DNA of 64,000 nucleotides from an uncultured Bacteroidales bacterium (GCA_964624065.1 CAZUWF010000002.1:68261-132260), one strand, 5' to 3'. Numbered from the stretch's first letter, positions 21,150 to 50,511 are shown. Numbers and translations: made by a program. Notes: generated by a model not told the origin, from the letters alone.

Positions 21150-22856
21150 CTATTTCTTGGTGCGCCACTGGTAATTTGAGAGTCCTTCTTGAATTTGCTT
21201 GAGTCTTTCCTCGGGGGTCATATTGTTCCATTTTGTCCTTTCGGCCTCGTAGGCACGTCTTTCTTCCTCTTTTATGGCTCTTATTTGTGCCAGGTTTCGT
21301 TGTTCGAGCCTGTTTGAGAGGAAGGTCTTGGCAACCGCCGGAAACAGTTCTATGAGGAGCTCATCCTTTTCGTTCTCGGCAAGCTTGGCGCCATAGGCCT
21401 CGCAGAAATCATTATCCACTTTCTTGTGGTCTTTGGGGTTGTAAGGCACTTCCTTGGCCGAGCCCGTTATTTTCTTGCGAAACTTAGGGCTGATGGGTAT
21501 GGGTGTCCTACCGTAAAGGCCTTTTACCATATTTTCGAACTGTACCGACTTGGTGGTGTACATAGGCTTGCCGCTGTTTTCATCGAGTACGCAGTTAACC
21601 GCTTGTTGACCAACAATTTGACTTGTTGGGGTTACCAAAGGTGGGCAGCCAGAATCGAGTCGAACGGTTGGTATGATTTCCAGTACTCTTGGAAGGAGCT
21701 TTTCGAGGTTCAGCTGCTTTAATTGTGCCAACATATTGGTGTACATTCCGCCGGGCATTTCGGCCGACCTAACCTTGACATTTGGAGGGGGTAGCTTGAA
21801 ATAGCTCTCTATAAGCTGGGTTACCTTTAGCAGTTCCTTTTCCTTCCGCTTTTGGGCGTACTGTATGGCATAGTCGAACAGTTGGTCTATTTCTTTTGGC
21901 AAGGTATCGTACGAAATGTCGAATGCAAAGGGCATTTCCCGGCAAGCATCGAAGGCTGCCAGTTCCTTGCGAATTTCGGCCAGTTCTTTGTTTATGCTTC
22001 CAACGGCCTTTAGATTAATTCCGGTTTTGATCTTTAGTTTGTTGCAGAATATTTGGATTATCTCGAAGCTAGGACCGGCTGGACCGCCCGAAAAGTTGAG
22101 AATGCAGGTATCTACCACATCAACTCCGTTGATTATTGCCGAAAGCATAGAGGCCAGTCCATACCCGGGGGTACAGTGAGTGTGAAAGTTTATTGGCAGG
22201 TTAACTTCTTCCTTAAGCAATTTTACCAGGATCCCTGTTTTGATGGGCGGTATTAACCCAGCCATATCCTTGATGGTGATTATGTCGGCACCCATTTTTT
22301 CCAACTCCTGTGCCTTGCGCACGAAGTACTCTAGGGTAAATACCTTTTTGGGGATCACATTTCCCTTAAGGATTTCAAGCAGCCGTTCGGTTTTTCTGGG
22401 CTTTGGGTCAACGGTGTAGCAAACAGCACAATCGGCAATACCTCCGTTTGCCTTCACAATCTTTATTGTTGATTCAATGTTGGCCATGTCGTTGAGGGCA
22501 TCGAAGATTCGCATAATACCTATGCCTGATTTTATAGCATTTCGGTTGAACCCCTCGATGACGTTTTCAGGGTATGGATTGTACCCAAAAAGGTTGCGCC
22601 CGCGCGAAAGGGCAGTAAGGTGCGACCTGTCGCCAATGGTAGCCTTTATGGTTTCGAGCCTCGCCCATGGGTCTTCGTTGAGGTAACGCATTACCGAATC
22701 AGGTACCGCTCCTCCCCAAACTTCAATAGCGTAAAAACCAGCCTCTTGGTAATATGGAAGTACACGGTCAATTTGTGCCTGGGTCATACGTGTTGCAAAA
22801 AGCGATTGCTGCCCGTCGCGAAGGGTAATATCCCTTATTTTTAGCGTCTTGTTCAT
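21150..22856 (-). CDS. Carboxyltransferase of the oxaloacetate decarboxylase-alpha / pyruvate carboxylase-B / transcarboxylase-5S type, with no biotinyl domain
   Basis: ITLRDGQQS, IKDMAG (carbamyl-Lys context) and FHTHCTPG metal site are present, plus a PYC_OADA-like region. There is no AMKM/MKM biotin motif anywhere, and the C-terminus is a charged coil. Confidence 0.85.
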   Translation of the reverse strand: MNKTLKIRDITLRDGQQSLFATRMTQAQIDRVLPYYQEAGFYAIEVWGGAVPDSVMRYLNEDPWARLETIKATIGDRSHLTALSRGRNLFGYNPYPENVIEGFNRNAIKSGIGIMRIFDALNDMANIESTIKIVKANGGIADCAVCYTVDPKPRKTERLLEILKGNVIPKKVFTLEYFVRKAQELEKMGADIITIKDMAGLIPPIKTGILVKLLKEEVNLPINFHTHCTPGYGLASMLSAIINGVDVVDTCILNFSGGPAGPSFEIIQIFCNKLKIKTGINLKAVGSINKELAEIRKELAAFDACREMPFAFDISYDTLPKEIDQLFDYAIQYAQKRKEKELLKVTQLIESYFKLPPPNVKVRSAEMPGGMYTNMLAQLKQLNLEKLLPRVLEIIPTVRLDSGCPPLVTPTSQIVGQQAVNCVLDENSGKPMYTTKSVQFENMVKGLYGRTPIPISPKFRKKITGSAKEVPYNPKDHKKVDNDFCEAYGAKLAENEKDELLIELFPAVAKTFLSNRLEQRNLAQIRAIKEEERRAYEAERTKWNNMTPEERLKQIQEGLSNYQWRTKK

Positions 22857-42644: not shown

Positions 42645-43838
42645 CTACACTCGCTCCAAAGCGATAGAAATACCTTGTCCCACACCAATACACATCGTGC
42701 AAAGTGCCCTCCTTTTGCTTGTGGCTAAAAGTTGATGGTAGGCCGTTGTCACAAGCCTTGCCCCACTCATACCCAAAGGGTGACCAAGGGCTATTGCACC
42801 GCCTAGCGGATTTATTCTTGGGTCGTTGTCGTGGAGCCCAAGTTGTCGGGTGCAGCCCAGCACTTGAGCTGCAAATGCCTCGTTTATCTCGATTATATCG
42901 AAATCGTCTAAGGTCAGTTTCAGTAACTTGAGTAGTTTTTTGGTTGCCGGTACAGGCCCCAGTCCCATTGTGCGGGGTGCTACCCCTGCAGTTGCCATCG
43001 CAAGGATTCGAACCTTGGGCCTCAATCCAAACCGCCTTACCGCCTCTTCTGAAGCCACAAATAGCGCGGCAGCACCATCGTTAATTCCAGAAGCATTACC
43101 TGCCGTGATGGTCTTGGTTAGGGGTTTAAGGGCGGCAAGCTTTTCTAATGATGAAAGCCTGGGGTGCTCGTCCAAATTGACTAAAACAGGGTCACCTTGG
43201 CGCTGGGGAAAGGATACAGCTAACATTTCGCTTTCAAAACTTCCGATGTCCTGAGCCAGTTTGGTTTTCTCTTGGCTCCATTGGGCAAACTTGTCTTGGT
43301 CTTCCCTGCTAATGCTCATCTCCTGTGCTATGTTTTCGGCGGTTTCCATCATACTCTCGGTTCCGTAAAGTTTGTCCAAGTTTTTGTTGACGAACCTCCA
43401 GCCAAGTGTTGTGTCGTATAGTTTCACATCTCGCGAAAAAGCTGTGGTGGCCTTGTCCATAACAAATGGAGCCCTCGACATGCTCTCAACACCCCCGGCG
43501 ACCAATAGATCGGCTTCCCCGGCCTTGATTGCCCTTGCAGCTGTGCCAATAGCATCCATTCCTGAGCCACATAAACGGTTTATGGTTGCGCCTGGTATAG
43601 ATTCGGGAAGTCCAGATAGCAGCGAAGCCATACGAGCAATGTTGCGATTGTCCTCGCCTGCCTGGTTTGCACAACCCATAATCACATCGTCAATTGATAG
43701 TGGGTCAATGCCAGGATTTCTTGCTACCAGGGCATTAATTACATGGGCAGCCAGATCATCGGGCCTGACCTCTGCCAGTTTACCGCCATAGCGGCCGATT
43801 GGGGTACGCAACGCGTCAATAATGTAAACGGGGTTCAT
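42645..43838 (-). CDS. Thiolase (acetyl-CoA C-acyl/acetyltransferase)
   Basis: 397 aa. NRLCGSGMDAI (nucleophilic Cys), NEAFAAQVL, GHPLGMSGARL and CIGVGQGIS. Confidence 0.92.
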   Translation of the reverse strand: MNPVYIIDALRTPIGRYGGKLAEVRPDDLAAHVINALVARNPGIDPLSIDDVIMGCANQAGEDNRNIARMASLLSGLPESIPGATINRLCGSGMDAIGTAARAIKAGEADLLVAGGVESMSRAPFVMDKATTAFSRDVKLYDTTLGWRFVNKNLDKLYGTESMMETAENIAQEMSISREDQDKFAQWSQEKTKLAQDIGSFESEMLAVSFPQRQGDPVLVNLDEHPRLSSLEKLAALKPLTKTITAGNASGINDGAAALFVASEEAVRRFGLRPKVRILAMATAGVAPRTMGLGPVPATKKLLKLLKLTLDDFDIIEINEAFAAQVLGCTRQLGLHDNDPRINPLGGAIALGHPLGMSGARLVTTAYHQLLATSKRRALCTMCIGVGQGISIALERV

Positions 43839-43846
43839 AACGTTGT

Positions 43847-45175
43847 TTATTTTTGAATTTCCTCAATCCTAGGTTTGAAAACCTTGAAGGCTTTGAACAC
43901 ACCGTGCACCAGATGATCAATTTCTTTTTGTGTCATCACGGTTGAAAACATACATGCAAAAGTATTTATCATCATTATTTTTTCCTCGTGGTAAAGGTAG
44001 TCAAGAACATCATTTACGAGGGTTGCTGCATCTTGCTTTTGGTAGGCCTCACGATAGGTGGTTGGCGGGGTTGGTCTGAAGTGGAATCTGAACATAGAGC
44101 CAGCACCTGTTATCGAAACTTGCACATCGGCCGCCCTAATGGCTTCTTCAAGTTGACCGATGGCGGTTTGGGTTAAACTGTTAAGGTCTTCAACTGCTTT
44201 TTGGTCAAACAACTCCATAGCAACCCTACCTGCAGTGGTGGTAATTGGATTTGCCGAAAATGTTCCGGAAAACGGAAATAGGAGCTTGCTCTCACCAGGG
44301 TCTAGCACTTTCATAATTTCGGCTTTCCCGCCAAAAGCACCCACCGGAAAACCTCCACCGATTATCTTGCCCATCGCTGTCATATCAGGCATTACCGAGT
44401 ATCTTTCTTGGGCACCTCCGTATCCAACCCTCAAGGTAACAACCTCATCGAACAGCAACAATGCCCCATTTTTCTCTGTCCATGCTTTCAGGGCTTCCAC
44501 AAAGTCATTGGTAGCGGGTAGTAGGCCTACCCTATGTGGTACTGGGTCAATGAGCACTGCGGCAATTTTGTCTGCCTGCCTGTCAAGTATGGTCAGGGTG
44601 CGTTCAATGTCGTTATAGGGAAATATAATCACATCGTCCAAGACCCCTTGCGGGGTGGCAAAAGAGAGCGGAACGCTGTTGGGGCTATCTATACTTCCCC
44701 AATTTGCGGGGCTTGAAGTTTGGCTAATTTCAGCAAAGTCGTAAGTTCCGTGGTATGCCCCTTCGGCCTTTGCAATTTTCGGACGGCCGGTGAATGCCCT
44801 TGCAGCTTTAATCATTGCCATAACGGCTTCGGTACCCGAATTGGTAAAGCGAAGCTTATCAACACTTTTAACCCTGCCACACAGTTGCTGTGCATGTGCA
44901 ACCTCAGCCTCGGTGGCCATGGTGTAAGCCGTGCCGCGGGCAACTTGCTCGATTACCGCCTCAACAATTGCTGGGTGGGCGTGACCGTGAATGAGCGATG
45001 CCATATTGTTGGCAAAGTCAGCCCTTTTAATGCCATCAATGTCGGTAACGTAGCTTCCCGAGGCGTGGGCAGCGTAAAAGGGGTGAGGTTTGTGGTAAAT
45101 CGTGTTGCGACTAACGCCGCCGGCAATAACCTTGCAGGCCTCTGCGTAAATTTCTGGTGCGGTTTTTAGGGCCAT
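43847..45175 (-). CDS. Class III (GSAM-like) PLP aminotransferase, candidate beta-amino acid / beta-aminoacyl-CoA transaminase
   Basis: GGVSRN, FTNSGTEAVMAMIKAAR, FDEVVT and MGKIIGGGFPVGAFGG (PLP lysine) give overall glutamate-1-semialdehyde aminomutase-like architecture. The gene sits between the CoA-transferase and thiolase genes. Confidence 0.85.
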   Translation of the reverse strand: MALKTAPEIYAEACKVIAGGVSRNTIYHKPHPFYAAHASGSYVTDIDGIKRADFANNMASLIHGHAHPAIVEAVIEQVARGTAYTMATEAEVAHAQQLCGRVKSVDKLRFTNSGTEAVMAMIKAARAFTGRPKIAKAEGAYHGTYDFAEISQTSSPANWGSIDSPNSVPLSFATPQGVLDDVIIFPYNDIERTLTILDRQADKIAAVLIDPVPHRVGLLPATNDFVEALKAWTEKNGALLLFDEVVTLRVGYGGAQERYSVMPDMTAMGKIIGGGFPVGAFGGKAEIMKVLDPGESKLLFPFSGTFSANPITTTAGRVAMELFDQKAVEDLNSLTQTAIGQLEEAIRAADVQVSITGAGSMFRFHFRPTPPTTYREAYQKQDAATLVNDVLDYLYHEEKIMMINTFACMFSTVMTQKEIDHLVHGVFKAFKVFKPRIEEIQK

Positions 45176-45253
45176 TGTAATGTGATGGTTTCGTTTGAAT
45201 TTATTCCAATTGATCGGCTACCGGTTTCGTGATTTGGCGGGTGGGGTTGGAGT

Positions 45254-45907
45254 TTAGTTCATCAAGCTCAATTTCGGTTCCGTGCGATCTTGCAGGTACT
45301 CCAAGGTAACTCCCGGAGCCATTTCTTTTACCACAAGTCCTTCGGATGTAATGTCAATTACCGCCAAATCTGAATAAATTCTGCTAACGACGCCCTTTCC
45401 CGTCAAGGGGTATGAGCATTGGTTTACAATTTTGGGTTCTTCGGTTTTTGTGGTATGTTGGGTCATCACAAATATTGTCTTGACACCTTGCACCAAGTCC
45501 ATAGCCCCACCAACGGCGGGTATTGCGTTGGGAGCGCCCGTTGACCAGTTTGCAATGTCGCCTTGGGCCGATACTTGAAACGCCCCTAAAACGCAGATGT
45601 CAATGTGGCCTCCTCTAACCATGGCAAAACTGTCGGCGTGGTGAAAGAAACTTGCCCCTTTAATTGCTGTTATCGGTTTTTTGCCAGCGTTTATAAGTTC
45701 ATCGTTCTCAAGGCCGGGTAGGGGAGAGGGACCAATTCCCAATAACCCGTTTTCGGTGTGGAAAATTACCTCCCTACCCTCGGGAATGTGGTTTGCCACT
45801 AGCTCCGGCATTCCTATACCCAGGTTTACGTATGCTCCATCGGGAATGTCTTTGGCTATTTTTGCAGCCATTTCATCCCGGGTCCATTTTCTTATCTCGG
45901 TGCTCAT
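45254..45907 (-). CDS. 3-oxoacid CoA-transferase subunit B
   Basis: 217 aa. HTENGLLG contains the catalytic Glu (ENG motif). It overlaps subunit A by 4 nt. Confidence 0.92.
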   Translation of the reverse strand: MSTEIRKWTRDEMAAKIAKDIPDGAYVNLGIGMPELVANHIPEGREVIFHTENGLLGIGPSPLPGLENDELINAGKKPITAIKGASFFHHADSFAMVRGGHIDICVLGAFQVSAQGDIANWSTGAPNAIPAVGGAMDLVQGVKTIFVMTQHTTKTEEPKIVNQCSYPLTGKGVVSRIYSDLAVIDITSEGLVVKEMAPGVTLEYLQDRTEPKLSLMN

Positions 45908-46614
45908 GGATACCTCCTTTGTTCTTTTAGAAGTTGATTCTCGCTAACAGGGTTGGGAACGTGAACTACTTTCTTGACGAAAATACCCGGTGTTACAACT
46001 ATTTCGGGGTCAATTTGTCCGGGCTCCACTATTTCGGAAGCCTGAACAATTGCCGACTTGGCACCCATACACATTACGGGTCCGAAGTTTCTGGCAGTCT
46101 TGTTGAAGAGTAGATTGCCATACCTGTCGGCGGTTTTGCATTTTACCAGCGAAAAATCTGCCTTTATGCCATATTCCATCACGTATGGCTTACCGTTAAA
46201 CTCGCGAATAGGTTTGCCTTCGGCCAATGGAGTGTTAACCGATGTAGGTGTGAAGAATGCTGGAATTCCGGCACCACCCGCTCTAATTCGCTCTGCGAGG
46301 GTTCCTTGGGGAACAAGTTCGAGTTCAATCTCGCCCTTGACGTACAATTCGGGAAATACCACTGAATCGGCGGTTCGCGGAAAGGAGCAAATCATTTTTT
46401 TTACTTGCCTGTTGGCAATTAACGCGGCCAGTCCAACGTATCCGTTGCCTGTGTTGTTACTAACCACCGTTAGATTCTTTGCCCCGTGGTCAATGAGGGC
46501 GTGGATTAATTCTATGGGGCTTCCTGCCTCGCCAAAGCCGCTTATCATTACGGTGGCTCCGTCAAATATTCCTGATACTGCTTCGTGAGGCGAACCTACA
46601 ATCTTGTTTATCAT
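45904..46614 (-). CDS. 3-oxoacid CoA-transferase subunit A
   Basis: 236 aa. GATVMISGFGEAGSPIELIHAL and ELELVPQGTLAERIRAGGAGIPAFFT are typical of ScoA/AtoD. Confidence 0.92.
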   Translation of the reverse strand: MINKIVGSPHEAVSGIFDGATVMISGFGEAGSPIELIHALIDHGAKNLTVVSNNTGNGYVGLAALIANRQVKKMICSFPRTADSVVFPELYVKGEIELELVPQGTLAERIRAGGAGIPAFFTPTSVNTPLAEGKPIREFNGKPYVMEYGIKADFSLVKCKTADRYGNLLFNKTARNFGPVMCMGAKSAIVQASEIVEPGQIDPEIVVTPGIFVKKVVHVPNPVSENQLLKEQRRYP

Positions 46615-46631
46615 GAATGAATTATTCTGGG

Positions 46632-48188
46632 TTACTTTTTCTTACGACCTTCTTTTATGGATTCTTCCAGTTTGTTTTCAATGCGGGCAAGCTCCTCCTC
46701 GTAAAAATGACTGTCGTTTTTGTAGGGTTTTAGGTTTACGATGGTATTTTCCTTTTCATCGTAATGGGCGAGGTAAACCTTGTCCATCCACTCCATATTT
46801 CGACCTTCGTTAAACTTAAGGGCAAATAGTTTCTCTCCCGGCAAGTCAACCGTACCTAATAAGGAAATCTTACCAGCCGATGAAGTTTGGGTAATGTACC
46901 TCGAGGGGCGGCTCAAAGAAGGCAGCTCTCGGTAAATCTTGCTGAAAATCTTGTCTATCTCGGCTACTGGCTGGTTAAAGTAGTGAAACTCTCCCGTGGG
47001 CCTGGCAAGGTACATCGAGTGGAATCCAACACCAAGCATCGAAAGAACATTGCCCAAATCAATCCAGTTTTGTGCCGATCTATCAACATCAACCTCGCCA
47101 TTTTCTTTGGTGAAAAGGCTAATGTGGTTCATCACGGGGCTTTGACTCTTTATGGTAACTCCGTGTGCTTTGAGCCTCCTAATGGCTGCAATGGTACTCA
47201 GGTTTAGAACTTCGCGCGGGGTTGAAAAATGCGACATGAAAGCCAGTTGTATACCGTTGTCATACAGCTTTTTAAAAAGCTTGAGCATTGGGTCAAATTC
47301 GGGTGTGATAACATATTCTGGATGGAATGTCAACACTCTTGTTCCCAACCTGATAGTTTTTATGTGGTTTAGGTCTTTTCGTTCTATTATGGGGTTAATG
47401 TACTCTGCAAATCGCTCAGGTTTCAAGTAACCTGCGTCACCTCCCGTAATAAGTAAATCGGTTACTTCCTTGTGGTCTTTAAGGTATTCGTGAATTTGGT
47501 TAACGTCTTTTTGCAAGAACATATCATCATCGCCGCGTACCTGTGCATGTCTGAAACAGTAGTTGCAAAAGGCAAAGCAATTCTGGGTTTGAACGTCGAA
47601 AACAAGCTTGCATTGAGGGTACTTGTGCTGGCTACCTTCTACAACTTCAACCTCCCCGTCTTCGTTAATAAACGTTGGTTTGTTAAGCTGCTGCTTGCCA
47701 TCGTGCGGATTGGTTTCCTTGATGTAATCCTTCACAATCTGGTCTTTTTCCTCTTCGGTTTTTGCCGCAAGGTAAGCCTTTGTAACATCCTGCCTTATCA
47801 TTCCTGGTTGCGGAAAAACAAGTTGAAAAACCGAGTCCTTTTCAAACTTTGCCCACTTGATGGTGTTGAGAACGTGCTTGGTGGCCATAAACCTGTAAAC
47901 CTTGATGAAGAGTTCACGTTCTTGGTGGTGACCAATGTCGAAACCATTTTCTTCGAGGATTTTCACGATTTCTCTGTAACCTTTAAGACCACTGTATTTG
48001 GGCTTGTCGGTAAAGTGGAATACCTCCTCTTCGGCAATACCTGAATGCTGTGGATAGGCTGCCTGCAATCGATTCAAAACGCCTACCGGAAGAAGGTTCT
48101 CCTTTTCAATTATTTCCCTGGTTTCGGAACTGTAGTTGTACCGGTCAATCAGTGCTTGGCACTTTTGTGGTGAGATGATTTGATTCAT
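46632..48188 (-). CDS. KamA-family radical SAM / PLP 2,3-aminomutase homologue (atypical, long form)
   Basis: CFAFCNYC (CxxxCxxC cluster), LITGGDA and SSAGK (candidate PLP lysine). Collinear by eye with lysine 2,3-aminomutase but with a longer N-terminus and an internal insertion. ATG 48188 is preferred over the track TTG at 48260 because a -7 box sits at 48258-48265. Confidence 0.85.
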   Translation of the reverse strand: MNQIISPQKCQALIDRYNYSSETREIIEKENLLPVGVLNRLQAAYPQHSGIAEEEVFHFTDKPKYSGLKGYREIVKILEENGFDIGHHQERELFIKVYRFMATKHVLNTIKWAKFEKDSVFQLVFPQPGMIRQDVTKAYLAAKTEEEKDQIVKDYIKETNPHDGKQQLNKPTFINEDGEVEVVEGSQHKYPQCKLVFDVQTQNCFAFCNYCFRHAQVRGDDDMFLQKDVNQIHEYLKDHKEVTDLLITGGDAGYLKPERFAEYINPIIERKDLNHIKTIRLGTRVLTFHPEYVITPEFDPMLKLFKKLYDNGIQLAFMSHFSTPREVLNLSTIAAIRRLKAHGVTIKSQSPVMNHISLFTKENGEVDVDRSAQNWIDLGNVLSMLGVGFHSMYLARPTGEFHYFNQPVAEIDKIFSKIYRELPSLSRPSRYITQTSSAGKISLLGTVDLPGEKLFALKFNEGRNMEWMDKVYLAHYDEKENTIVNLKPYKNDSHFYEEELARIENKLEESIKEGRKKK

Positions 48189-48257
48189 TAATTTGATGTA
48201 TTTTGGGATTCGATAATAGTCGGCAGGCAACAGTTTTGGGGTATTCGAAAACTGCCG

Positions 48258-48265
48258 CAAATTTA
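48258..48265 (-). promoter_or_regulatory. Candidate -7 box (TAAATTTG) for the KamA-like operon
   Basis: The reverse strand matches TAnnTTTG 70 nt upstream of ATG 48188. No other box lies before the four downstream genes. Confidence 0.4.
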
Positions 48266-48488: not shown

Positions 48489-49268
48489 TTAATCCAATTT
48501 AATTATAAACCTATCCGCATCCAACCAAACCGGAAATTTGTCCCTGAATCTATTTAGTTCTTCAAGGTCGAGTTGAGCTGTAAAAAGCTCTTGGGAATCA
48601 TTGGTTGCCTTGTACAATTCCTTTCCTTTAGGGTCAATGACCATAGACTCACCAAGGTATTGAAGCCCGTTGCCATCAGTGCCAACCCTATTCACTGCCA
48701 CCACGTAGCATTGATTCTCCACAGCGCGGGCGCAAAGCAAGGTTTTCCAAACTTCATGTCTGGGCGCCGGCCAGTTGGCCACCAAGAAAATGGCATCGTA
48801 GTCGTTTTGGTTGCGCAGCCAAACAGGAAACCTCAAGTCGTAGCAAATTGCAAGCAGTATTCGAAGGTTTGCGTGTTGTATCACCACCCGTCGGTTACCT
48901 GCGTTGAATGCCCCTCCTTCCCTTTCGAAAACAAAAAGGTGCCTCTTGTCGTAATAACTAATCTTTCCGTTGGGCTCGACCCACACAAACCTGTTGAAGG
49001 TTTTTTCAGCATCCCTAACAGTAAGCGAGCCCCCAATGGCAAATCCGGTGGTGTTTGAAATTTTGTTCATCCAGCCAATCGTACGACCATGCATAGTTTC
49101 GGCAAACTTGGCTTTGTTCATCGTAAAACCAGTTGAGAACATTTCTGGTAGCAACACGGAGTTGGTTGACCTTGGAGATTTTAATATTTTCTCCTCAAGG
49201 TCGAAGAGGTTTTTGTCAACGTCCTCCCAGTGTGTGTTTGGCTGTATTATGGTTACTTTATACGACAT
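48489..49268 (-). CDS. Carbon-nitrogen hydrolase (nitrilase superfamily; omega-amidase/YafV-like)
   Basis: Glu-Lys-Cys triad contexts LLPEMF, YDKRHLF and LAICYDLRFP. The ATG is at 49268. Confidence 0.85.
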   Translation of the reverse strand: MSYKVTIIQPNTHWEDVDKNLFDLEEKILKSPRSTNSVLLPEMFSTGFTMNKAKFAETMHGRTIGWMNKISNTTGFAIGGSLTVRDAEKTFNRFVWVEPNGKISYYDKRHLFVFEREGGAFNAGNRRVVIQHANLRILLAICYDLRFPVWLRNQNDYDAIFLVANWPAPRHEVWKTLLCARAVENQCYVVAVNRVGTDGNGLQYLGESMVIDPKGKELYKATNDSQELFTAQLDLEELNRFRDKFPVWLDADRFIIKLD

Positions 49269-49304
49269 GAAGTGGGTTGGGTTAAGGGATTGGGTAATTA
49301 TTTG

Positions 49305-49312
49305 CAAAGGTA
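49305..49312 (-). promoter_or_regulatory. Candidate -7 box (TACCTTTG) for the C-N hydrolase gene
   Basis: The reverse strand matches TAnnTTTG 37 nt upstream of ATG 49268. Confidence 0.45.
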
Positions 49313-49417
49313 GCTTTTCAAACTAATTCCTTGATCTTGGTTTTCCTTGGAAAAGATCCATTTGGTTGTTTTTTGTTCTTTGCCTGGCTCATTTTTCATT
49401 TCACATCCATTTTTTTG

Positions 49418-49425
49418 TACTTTTG
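49418..49425 (+). promoter_or_regulatory. Candidate -7 box (TACTTTTG) for the kinase-dCMP deaminase pair
   Basis: Matches TAnnTTTG 21 nt upstream of ATG 49446. Confidence 0.45.
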
Positions 49426-49445
49426 AGAATCATTATTTTGCTTCT

Positions 49446-50009
49446 ATGGTCGTTATAGGAATTACTGGGACGATTGGTGCGGGCAAGGGGACTGTGGTTG
49501 ATTTCCTTGTTGAACAAAAAGGATTTGTCCATTTCTCCGCCCGTGAGTTCATTGCTCGCACCATCCTCGAACGTGGTTTAACTGTTAACCGAGATACGCT
49601 TACTGCAATTGGCAACGAAATAAGGGCAAACAACCATCCGGGTTATGTTATTGAAGCCCTCTACAACCAGGCGACCCAAGATGGTAAGAACTGCATAATT
49701 GAAAGTGTTCGAACCTTGGGTGAAATTGAAATATTGCGCACAAAATCCAATTTTTTCTTGCTTGCCGTGGATGCCCGACCAAGGCTGCGTTTCAATAGGA
49801 TCAGGAAGCGCAAGTCGGAGACTGATAATGTTGATTTCGAAACATTTTTGGCAAACGAAAAAAGAGAAATGCATTCCAGCGACCCTACCAAGCAAAACCT
49901 CTCTGCCTGCATTGCCCAAGCCGATTTCATAATTTCAAACAATGGCACCGTTGAGGAAATGGTAAAGCAATTAAAAAACTTCCTAATTCGCCTTCCGCTC
50001 GATGAATGA
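49446..50009 (+). CDS. P-loop nucleotide/nucleoside kinase-like protein (dephospho-CoA kinase/adenylate kinase fold)
   Basis: MVVIGITGTIGAGKGT Walker A at the extreme N-terminus, about 187 aa. Substrate unknown. It overlaps the dCMP deaminase start by 8 nt. Confidence 0.6.
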   Translation: MVVIGITGTIGAGKGTVVDFLVEQKGFVHFSAREFIARTILERGLTVNRDTLTAIGNEIRANNHPGYVIEALYNQATQDGKNCIIESVRTLGEIEILRTKSNFFLLAVDARPRLRFNRIRKRKSETDNVDFETFLANEKREMHSSDPTKQNLSACIAQADFIISNNGTVEEMVKQLKNFLIRLPLDE

Positions 50010-50511
50010 ATTCAAAAGCCAACAAGGTCCTCCTAAAAATCGCCCCCCCTGGGACGACTATTTTATGGAAATTGCCAACACCGTTAGCAAGCGGGCTACT
50101 TGCGATCGCGGCCGAAGTGGTTGTGTGATTGTTCGCGATAGGCAAATACTCGTAACAGGCTATGTTGGGTCGCCCATAGGGCTGCCTCACTGCGATGATG
50201 TAGGGCACCAGTTAAAAAAGGTATTCCACGAAGATGGTAGCTTTACAACACACTGCGTGCGCACCGTGCATGCGGAGCAAAATGCCATCTGCCAGGCAGC
50301 CAGGAAAGGGGTTAGCATTGACGGCGCAACCCTTTACTGCCGAATGACTCCGTGTAGGGTTTGCGCAATGCTAATTATCAACTGTGGAATAAAAAGGGTG
50401 GTTTGCGAACGCAAGTACCACGTAGGAGAAGAATCAGAGCAAATGTTTGCCGATGCTGGCGTAGAATTGAATTATTTTTCTGATGAAGTGGTAAAATACA
50501 GCATGCAGTGA
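50002..50511 (+). CDS. Deoxycytidylate (dCMP) deaminase
   Basis: WDDYFMEIANTVSKRATC, HAEQNA and PCRVCA zinc-binding motifs. Confidence 0.9.
   Translation: MNEFKSQQGPPKNRPPWDDYFMEIANTVSKRATCDRGRSGCVIVRDRQILVTGYVGSPIGLPHCDDVGHQLKKVFHEDGSFTTHCVRTVHAEQNAICQAARKGVSIDGATLYCRMTPCRVCAMLIINCGIKRVVCERKYHVGEESEQMFADAGVELNYFSDEVVKYSMQ

Follow-up and report, generated by a model that had tools for sequence, protein, structure and literature searches.

Which amino acid is the substrate of an operon that joins a KamA-like aminomutase to a 3-oxoacid CoA-transferase, an aminotransferase, and a thiolase? The question is raised by a 64,000-nt stretch of DNA from an uncultured Bacteroidales bacterium (GCA_964624065.1, CAZUWF010000002.1:68261-132260), here called the window, which carries on its minus strand five closely packed genes encoding a KamA-like radical S-adenosylmethionine (SAM) enzyme, subunits A and B of the CoA-transferase, a GSAM-like class-III aminotransferase, and the thiolase. 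An initial annotation of this DNA had proposed that the five genes form a self-contained beta-keto route of amino-acid catabolism distinct from canonical lysine fermentation. This proposal is supported by the conserved synteny of the operon, by the active-site residues of the aminomutase, and by the nearest solved relative of the aminotransferase, which is a beta/gamma-transaminase. The general scheme, by which an alpha-amino acid would be converted via a beta-amino acid and a beta-keto acid to a beta-ketoacyl-CoA that undergoes thiolysis, is very likely correct as judged from sequence comparisons. As to the substrate itself, the evidence presented below favors L-2-aminoadipate, an assignment that we hold with moderate confidence.

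Conservation of the five-gene operon

The operon was compared across ~95 loci, of which 80 were obtained by scanning a single genome for each species and ~15 more from exact-protein look-ups. The gene order KamA-like enzyme, CoA-transferase A, CoA-transferase B, aminotransferase, and thiolase is kept in nearly all of the loci that have enough downstream DNA, in hosts spanning at least nine phyla. Because the same five genes recur in the same order despite unrelated flanking genes, the arrangement is far beyond chance. A gene-neighborhood search had been suggested in the initial annotation as a check of conserved gene order and of co-occurrence with lysine fermentation genes; synteny held in nearly all of this set, and kamDE, kdd, and kce were not among the neighbors recurring in at least 4 of 89 loci.

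The hosts belong to the Bacteroidota, Ignavibacteriota, Balneolota, Cloacimonadota, Ca. Edwardsbacteria, Aminicenantes, Krumholzibacteriia, Sumerlaeota, SAR324, and the Gamma- and Betaproteobacteria. Those within the Bacteroidales are members of the Lentimicrobiaceae, Salinivirgaceae, Marinifilaceae, and Rikenellaceae, and the proteobacterial hosts include Shewanella corallii DSM 21332, Ramlibacter, and Rhodocyclaceae. Two cultured strains, Ancylomarina salipaludis and S. corallii DSM 21332, possess the operon. Many of the hosts belong to lineages known as anaerobic or come from anaerobic digesters or sediments.

A database search with the KamA-like protein gave more than 1,300 matches, and among the best 120 of these the name, wherever any is given, is either "lysine 2,3-aminomutase" (the JGI family name) or "hypothetical protein". 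Clustering of a library at 50% identity left a single full-length representative for all of the orthologues, with only 40% identity to the next relative. The orthologues form a tight family under strong constraint, and this family is clearly mobile. An Aminicenantes locus has a split ISL3-family transposase a short distance upstream of the operon (L064, 2824-3948), in keeping with a horizontal spread of the module.

The recurrent neighbors of the operon are regulators and transporters. Of the 25 loci with a PuuR-like XRE-cupin gene, 23 have it directly upstream of the operon, a LysR regulator was found beside the operon in three of the Proteobacteria loci examined, and a gene for an SSS-family symporter lies just upstream in 7 loci.

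The KamA-like enzyme and its side-chain pocket

We compared the KamA-like protein with lysine 2,3-aminomutase (LAM), whose sequence was checked against its PDB copy before alignment. The alignments produced by phmmer, hmmsearch, and hhalign ended at LAM residue 263, whereas a MAFFT alignment with bridging relatives reached the lysine that binds pyridoxal phosphate (PLP). The motif CFAFCNYC supplies the three cysteines of CxxxCxxC (C204, C208, and C211). R213 aligns with LAM R134, K440 with LAM K337, R396 with LAM D293, and T433 with LAM D330. In LAM we take K337 to be the PLP-binding lysine, R134 to be the arginine that holds the alpha-carboxylate, and D293 and D330 to be the ligands of the epsilon-ammonium group of the lysine side chain; published work reportedly describes these residue roles. 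Across 88 sequences of the KamA-like family, the three cysteines, the GGD motif, R213, K440, and R396 are invariant, and position 433 is occupied by Thr in 74 sequences and by Ser in the other 14.

The predicted structure of the protein agrees with this alignment in its overall architecture. The AlphaFold2 model (pLDDT 86.7, pTM 0.90) finds its best PDB fold match in LAM (2A5H; E 1e-12, target-normalised TM-score 0.63-0.65 over ~420 columns), with no other structure near. The two proteins thus have in common the fold, the CxxxCxxC cysteines, the GGD SAM motif, the alpha-carboxylate Arg, and the PLP lysine, but they are only 18-19% identical, and the KamA-like protein is longer by ~130 residues at its N-terminus and carries an insertion after residue 354. 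The Zn-site cysteines of LAM are absent from the KamA-like family as a whole. All NCBIfam models for the KamA family scored the protein under their cut-offs: 79.8 bits versus 199.2 for TIGR00238 (KamA family), 75.2 versus 525.4 for TIGR03820 (lysine 2,3-aminomutase), and 70.1 versus 650 for TIGR04368 (glutamate 2,3-aminomutase).

We infer that the protein is a PLP- and SAM-dependent 2,3-aminomutase unable to bind lysine in the manner of LAM. Because neither lysine-binding aspartate is kept, with an invariant Arg in the place of D293 and Thr or Ser in that of D330, the enzyme is predicted not to be a lysine aminomutase. An acidic side chain is suggested instead, since the alignment places the cationic R396 in the distal pocket, and the enzyme probably binds an anionic substrate side chain. 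A similar solution is reportedly found in glutamate 2,3-aminomutase (Eam), which is said to have Lys and Asn in place of the two lysine-binding aspartates, one of them thus being replaced by a cationic residue for an acidic side chain. The KamA-like protein differs from Eam in having Arg and Thr at these positions, in its operon partners, and in its score far under the TIGR04368 cut-off.

A distant relative in the representative search (P0266, 882 aa) carries a KamA-like region fused to a domain resembling histamine N-monooxygenase, which suggests that other members of the wider clade act in natural-product or siderophore chemistry.

The CoA-transferase, thiolase, and aminotransferase

The family assignments made in the initial annotation were confirmed for all five genes by Pfam and NCBIfam searches, with Pfam detecting Thiolase_N/C, a GSAM-like Aminotran_3 domain, and two CoA_trans domains in addition to the KamA-type radical SAM protein. 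CoA-transferase subunit A scored 341.7 bits with TIGR02429 (cut-off 128.5) and subunit B scored 303.7 bits with TIGR02428 (cut-off 243.55). The best solved structure for subunit A is 3CDK, subunit A of a succinyl-CoA:3-ketoacid CoA-transferase, and the operon enzyme fell under the AtoD cut-off. By these matches, the CoA-transferase is predicted to be of the PcaIJ/ScoAB succinyl-CoA:3-oxoacid type and not of the AtoDA type. The thiolase exceeded the trusted cut-offs of both NF006551 (650.1 bits versus 605) and TIGR02430 (633.6 bits versus 597), and it matched the solved beta-ketoadipyl-CoA thiolases 6PCA-6PCD with 501-511 bits as compared with ~300 bits for acetoacetyl-CoA thiolases. It is a predicted 3-oxoadipyl-CoA thiolase of the PcaF/PaaJ type. 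These family and equivalog matches are shared with the lower beta-ketoadipate pathway (PcaIJ and PcaF), and the last two steps that we propose below would be identical to it. The difference lies in the origin of 3-oxoadipate, which in that pathway comes from oxygen-dependent cleavage of aromatic rings and here would be formed from an amino acid by an aminomutase and a beta-transaminase.

The aminotransferase matches PF00202, and its best NCBIfam model, hemL (TIGR00713), gave 339 bits, under the cut-off of 527.3. Its best solved match is 6K8H, the beta/gamma-amino-acid omega-transaminase of Sphaerobacter thermophilus (377 bits), as compared with ~220 bits for GSAMs, 205 bits for MesAT (2YKU), and 185 bits for VpAT (4AO9). 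The GSAM-like beta-amino-acid transaminases 6K8H, MesAT, and VpAT, which are best or comparable solved matches, deaminate beta-amino acids to beta-keto acids; the characterised ones prefer aromatic or small aliphatic beta-amino acids, however, whereas a dicarboxylic substrate is only proposed here.

A parallel had also been drawn with Kat, the 3-aminobutyryl-CoA transaminase of a variant lysine fermentation. We recovered a Kat reference sequence from metagenome contigs by means of the published forward cloning primer (Perret et al., 2011; PMC3149608). The recovered open reading frame (ORF) encodes 414 aa, and its C-terminus agrees with the residues encoded by the reverse primer of that paper. 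The two characterised Kat enzymes, one of them CLOAM0809, share more than 65% identity (PMC3149608), whereas the operon aminotransferase is 25% identical to the recovered Kat over 428 columns and was therefore rejected as a Kat orthologue. Both systems place a HemL-like class-III aminotransferase beside a thiolase, remove a beta-amino group, and make a beta-ketoacyl compound, but the Kat fermentation depends on kamDE, kdd, and kce and employs AtoAD (Perret et al., 2011), none of which are present in the operon.

For the operon aminotransferases of loci L001-L089, identity to the window copy seems by eye to form two groups, at ~52-62% and ~65-75%, with smooth variation in the other four genes. 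The enzyme may exist as two subtypes, which could differ in amino acceptor.

Gene context of the operon

Among metabolic enzymes, only those that form 2-aminoadipate were found linked to the operon at more than one locus, and the links occur in several independent lineages. A gene for L-piperidine-6-carboxylate (P6C) dehydrogenase lies within or beside the operon in four proteobacterial loci (L063, L081, L086, and L102). Three of the encoded proteins exceeded the 730-bit cut-off of the P6C dehydrogenase model NF050084 (817.8 bits for L063, 758 for L081, and 772 for L086), and the one in L102 was identified by tblastn alone, being 55% identical to the L063 copy. In the SAR324 locus L063, the P6C dehydrogenase gene lies 7 kb upstream of the operon. 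Its neighbors there encode a polar amino-acid ABC transporter, regulators of the GntR and LysR types, and a flavoprotein resembling D-amino-acid dehydrogenase. The P6C dehydrogenase gene follows the aminotransferase gene directly in both Ramlibacter (L081) and Rhodocyclaceae (L086), taking the place of the thiolase gene. The order in L102, a 477-kb metagenome contig, is LysR, TctC, KamA-like enzyme, aminotransferase, P6C dehydrogenase, and 2-oxoacid:ferredoxin oxidoreductase. On a Cloacimonadota contig, an AlaDh_PNT_N-type gene and a Sacchrp_dh-type gene are found directly upstream of the operon; from its Pfam domains, this pair is putatively lysine-ketoglutarate-reductase-like (LKR) and saccharopine-dehydrogenase-like (SDH).

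P6C dehydrogenase forms L-2-aminoadipate in an essentially irreversible oxidation of an aldehyde. Since this reaction is effectively one-way, the context points to catabolism. The betaproteobacterial variants are incomplete with respect to the five genes, lacking the thiolase gene in L081 (as far as the contig extends) and L086 and both the CoA-transferase and the thiolase genes in L102. The missing steps would be those that a resident beta-ketoadipate pathway could supply.

Two other arrangements were seen around the P6C dehydrogenase genes. In two Ramlibacter-like contigs (L102, 9001-13734, and L104, 10001-14449), P6C dehydrogenase is followed by a 2-oxoacid:ferredoxin oxidoreductase composed of alpha/gamma and beta subunits, with a small ferredoxin also in L102; the alpha subunits are 84% identical. 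L104 has no KamA-like gene. A 512-aa protein encoded there was considered as a KamA-like candidate and rejected (hhalign probability 0.25), and P6C dehydrogenase and the oxidoreductase therefore form a separate pair of their own. The oxidoreductase may act on 2-oxoadipate, as a 2-oxoadipate:ferredoxin oxidoreductase, or may provide the radical SAM enzyme with reductant. In L063, the P6C dehydrogenase gene adjoins the C-terminal class-III aminotransferase part of a long PRK06148-type fusion that is cut by the contig end (2-1225). Fusions of this type presumably resemble hydroxylysine kinase plus phospholyase, which would likewise yield 2-aminoadipate semialdehyde.

Proposed pathway of 2-aminoadipate catabolism

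Based on these results, we propose that the operon is probably a catabolic module converting 2-aminoadipate via 3-aminoadipate, 3-oxoadipate, and 3-oxoadipyl-CoA to succinyl-CoA and acetyl-CoA. The KamA-like radical SAM/PLP enzyme would move the amino group of L-2-aminoadipate from C2 to C3, yielding 3-aminoadipate, and the GSAM-like class-III aminotransferase would pass this beta-amino group to a 2-oxoacid, yielding 3-oxoadipate. The two-subunit family-I CoA-transferase would then convert 3-oxoadipate and succinyl-CoA to 3-oxoadipyl-CoA, which the PcaF-type thiolase would cleave to succinyl-CoA and acetyl-CoA, regenerating the CoA donor. CoA transfer might alternatively come first, in which case transamination would take place on the CoA ester. 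The net reaction would be 2-aminoadipate + 2-oxoacid + CoA -> amino acid + succinate + acetyl-CoA. Having neither a redox step nor a decarboxylation, such a route would suit fermentative anaerobes.

Lysine breakdown by the saccharopine, pipecolate, and lysine-aminotransferase routes passes in each case through 2-aminoadipate. With 2-aminoadipate as its substrate, the pathway would therefore be related to lysine after all, via 2-aminoadipate and not via beta-lysine. The operon had initially been set apart from the lysine pathway; this holds true for beta-lysine fermentation, but a relation to lysine through 2-aminoadipate is most likely. In the known fates of this metabolite, 2-oxoadipate is formed and then converted either to glutaryl-CoA or, via HglS, to D-2-hydroxyglutarate. 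The proposed route would share with them the entry metabolite and the upstream enzymes (P6C dehydrogenase and the saccharopine pathway). However, the known fates begin with alpha-transamination and include a decarboxylation, whereas the proposed route would shift the amine to C3 and end in thiolysis with no loss of carbon. Full-text literature searches returned no relevant paper that treats 3-aminoadipate as a catabolite, describes an aminoadipate aminomutase, or connects aminoadipate with 3-oxoadipyl-CoA thiolase. The component enzymes are of known kinds; what appears to be new is the specificity, together with the route.

Alternative substrates and direction

Four other explanations were weighed, each of which accounts for fewer observations than 2-aminoadipate does. 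If the KamA-like protein were a divergent glutamate 2,3-aminomutase, beta-glutamate would be converted via 3-oxoglutarate and 3-oxoglutaryl-CoA to malonyl-CoA and acetyl-CoA. The cationic R396 in place of LAM D293 would suit glutamate as the Lys of Eam reportedly does, glutamate is abundant, and many hosts look proteolytic, with peptidases common among the neighboring genes. We nevertheless regard this route as unlikely in view of the TIGR04368 score (70 bits versus 650), the thiolase equivalog for 3-oxoadipyl-CoA, the lack of a malonyl-CoA decarboxylase nearby, and the context links, which lead to enzymes that make 2-aminoadipate. The same links count against a biosynthetic direction, in which succinyl-CoA and acetyl-CoA would give 3-oxoadipyl-CoA, 3-oxoadipate, 3-aminoadipate, and possibly 2-aminoadipate as a building block, osmolyte, or lysine precursor: the P6C dehydrogenase encoded in the operon runs toward 2-aminoadipate, PuuR-, LysR-, and GntR-type regulators and uptake transporters flank the operon, and no conserved downstream genes for consumption of the product were found. 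Although all steps except CoA transfer are readily reversible, and some hosts are halophilic or alkaliphilic (Balneolaceae, Cyclonatronaceae, Salinivirgaceae), where beta-amino-acid osmolytes are known, we consider biosynthesis quite improbable.

A route through beta-lysine, as implied by the database name "lysine 2,3-aminomutase", or one half of a split lysine fermentation, could draw on that JGI family name, on the lysine-catabolic nature of the context genes, and on Pseudomonas B4, which reportedly sets a precedent for beta-lysine transamination. Against it stand the loss of both lysine-binding aspartates, the TIGR03820 score (75 bits versus 525), the 25% identity of the aminotransferase to Kat, a CoA-transferase that is not of the AtoDA type, and the lack of enzymes for 4-aminobutyryl-CoA. 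Moreover, kamDE, kdd, and kce are absent both from the ~50 window ORFs scanned with Pfam and from the neighbor clusters recurring in at least 4 of 89 loci. On the active-site residues and model scores, a plain lysine aminomutase or a split lysine fermentation was rejected, and the beta-lysine route is very unlikely. Comparably slight is the chance of a neutral substrate, be it leucine, degraded via beta-leucine and beta-ketoisocaproate to acetyl-CoA and isobutyryl-CoA, or 2-aminobutyrate, converted via 3-aminobutyrate to acetoacetate. The general chemistry would fit, as acetoacetate and short beta-keto acids are substrates of ScoAB-type transferases and of thiolases, but the invariant distal-pocket Arg has no role with a hydrophobic side chain, the thiolase belongs to the dicarboxylyl (PcaF) clade rather than to the acetoacetyl clade, no branched-chain acyl-CoA genes lie nearby, and the context points to 2-aminoadipate. 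The beta-keto pathway of leucine, cited initially as a precedent, thus gains no support.

Several observations weigh against 2-aminoadipate as the substrate. The Arg at the position of LAM D293 is also found in most distant relatives from a wider uncharacterised clade and is not a specific marker of the substrate. PcaF-type thiolases and ScoAB-type transferases also take acetoacetyl substrates. The context links to 2-aminoadipate were seen in only 5 of ~100 loci, none of them in Bacteroidales, and tblastn searches detected no LKR, SDH, or P6C dehydrogenase in the window, so that no source of 2-aminoadipate is seen there. Finally, the pairing of P6C dehydrogenase with the oxidoreductase in L102 and L104 may mark the conventional 2-oxoadipate route instead.

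Operon structure and other features of the window

The five genes were described initially as closely packed on the minus strand, and the ORF coordinates (Table 1) bear this out, with intergenic gaps of 8 nt, 78 nt, -4 nt, and 17 nt from the thiolase end to the KamA end. ORF calling extended the first gene to a TTG (46632-48260), but its true start is the ATG at 48188. The resulting product of 518 aa matches a database protein of NCBI origin (P0001) in both length and sequence, and the TTG at 48260 is made up of the last three bases of the promoter box TAAATTTG. With the corrected start, the gap between the upstream amidase and the operon becomes 300 nt rather than the 228 nt given before.

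Table 1. Coordinates of the operon genes, promoter-like boxes, and upstream amidase in the window
Feature	Position	Strand	Basis or remark
3-Oxoadipyl-CoA thiolase (PcaF/PaaJ type), predicted	42645-43838	-	NF006551, TIGR02430
Class-III (GSAM-like) aminotransferase; proposed 3-aminoadipate:2-oxoacid beta-transaminase	43847-45175	-	PF00202
Second TAnnTTTG match TACTTTTG	43957-43964	-	within aminotransferase gene, ~120 nt upstream of thiolase start
3-Oxoacid CoA-transferase subunit B (PcaJ/ScoB family)	45254-45907	-	TIGR02428; 4-nt overlap with subunit A gene
3-Oxoacid CoA-transferase subunit A (PcaI/ScoA family)	45904-46614	-	TIGR02429
KamA-like radical SAM/PLP enzyme, 518 aa; proposed 2-aminoadipate 2,3-aminomutase	46632-48188	-	TIGR00238 below cut-off, LAM-like predicted fold
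Promoter-like box TAAATTTG, Bacteroidota -7 type	48258-48265	-	consensus match only; 70 nt upstream of first-gene ATG
YafV-like nitrilase-superfamily amidase	48489-49307	-	NF007757, 265 bits versus cut-off 249

The box TAAATTTG is present as described. It had been called the only TAnnTTTG box of the operon, which is not the case: the second match, TACTTTTG, is possibly an internal promoter or a chance match. In the window as a whole, TAnnTTTG has 77 matches versus 62 +/- 8 expected, so that its enrichment is not clear. Because of the second box inside the operon and the lack of clear enrichment, the count of promoter boxes is weak evidence for one transcript; the real evidence for a single unit is the tight spacing together with the conserved synteny. 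Terminator and RNA-fold scans made evident no intrinsic terminator downstream of the thiolase gene, and the sigma-70 promoter, terminator, and RNA-fold scans gave no signal exceeding shuffled controls.

The amidase gene was considered as a sixth gene of the operon and rejected, as just 4 of 89 loci have a homologue adjoining the operon; it is probably not part of the system. The canonical lysine-fermentation genes had been noted as absent from the cluster and its flanks, in agreement with Pfam scans of ~50 ORFs from the window, in which no kamDE, kdd, kce, or kal was found. The remainder of the window is housekeeping Bacteroidota DNA, including genes for PorV, PorP, a C25 PorU-like peptidase, DnaK, RecQ, and FBPase. 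On the minus strand, 21150-22856 encodes a protein resembling the oxaloacetate decarboxylase alpha subunit (PYC_OADA plus HMGL-like domains); such decarboxylases are typical of the sodium-pumping types in anaerobes and fit an anaerobic lifestyle of the host. On the plus strand, an AAA_18 kinase-like ORF (49347-50009) overlaps a dCMP/cytidine deaminase ORF (50002-50511) by 8 nt and matches the anti-phage dCTP deaminase model weakly (47.6 bits versus a cut-off of 400). The two ORFs may form an ordinary pair for nucleotide salvage or represent a defence gene that is split.

Further genes were seen next to the operon in other hosts. In a Krumholzibacteriia locus (L067, 15116-15523), a gene for a PaaI-like hotdog thioesterase lies 3' of the thiolase gene on the same strand. 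Directly downstream of the operon in Ca. Edwardsbacteria (L005-L007, 15748-21563) are an isopropylmalate/homoisocitrate-dehydrogenase-like gene, a gene for a 744-aa fusion protein, and genes for the large and small subunits of an aconitase/IPM-isomerase. These genes were considered as a homocitrate/2-oxoadipate pathway, but all scores fell under the equivalog cut-offs, and the "synthase" is the 744-aa protein, in which an HMG-CoA-lyase-like domain is joined to a family III CoA-transferase; the genes were not used as evidence.

Possible implications for lysine catabolism

On balance, and with somewhat more reserve than for the substrate, we favor the view that the operon represents an undescribed, redox-neutral, and carbon-retaining branch of lysine catabolism that has spread horizontally through anaerobic bacteria of the FCB group and some Proteobacteria, with the KamA-like enzyme as the founding member of a new clade of radical SAM/PLP aminomutases. 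If so, a new specificity would be added to the very few amino-acid 2,3-aminomutases characterised (Lys, Glu, and Arg), and the widespread database name "lysine 2,3-aminomutase" would be corrected for this family. 3-Aminoadipate would be a genuine microbial metabolite, and 2-aminoadipate would have a new fate, one that joins lysine breakdown to the lower beta-ketoadipate pathway and requires no oxygen, redox cofactors, or decarboxylation. The presence of the operon in the cultured strains A. salipaludis and S. corallii DSM 21332 makes the proposal directly testable. The same pathway would account for the PcaIJ- and PcaF-like genes found in strictly anaerobic Bacteroidales, Ignavibacteria, and Cloacimonadota.

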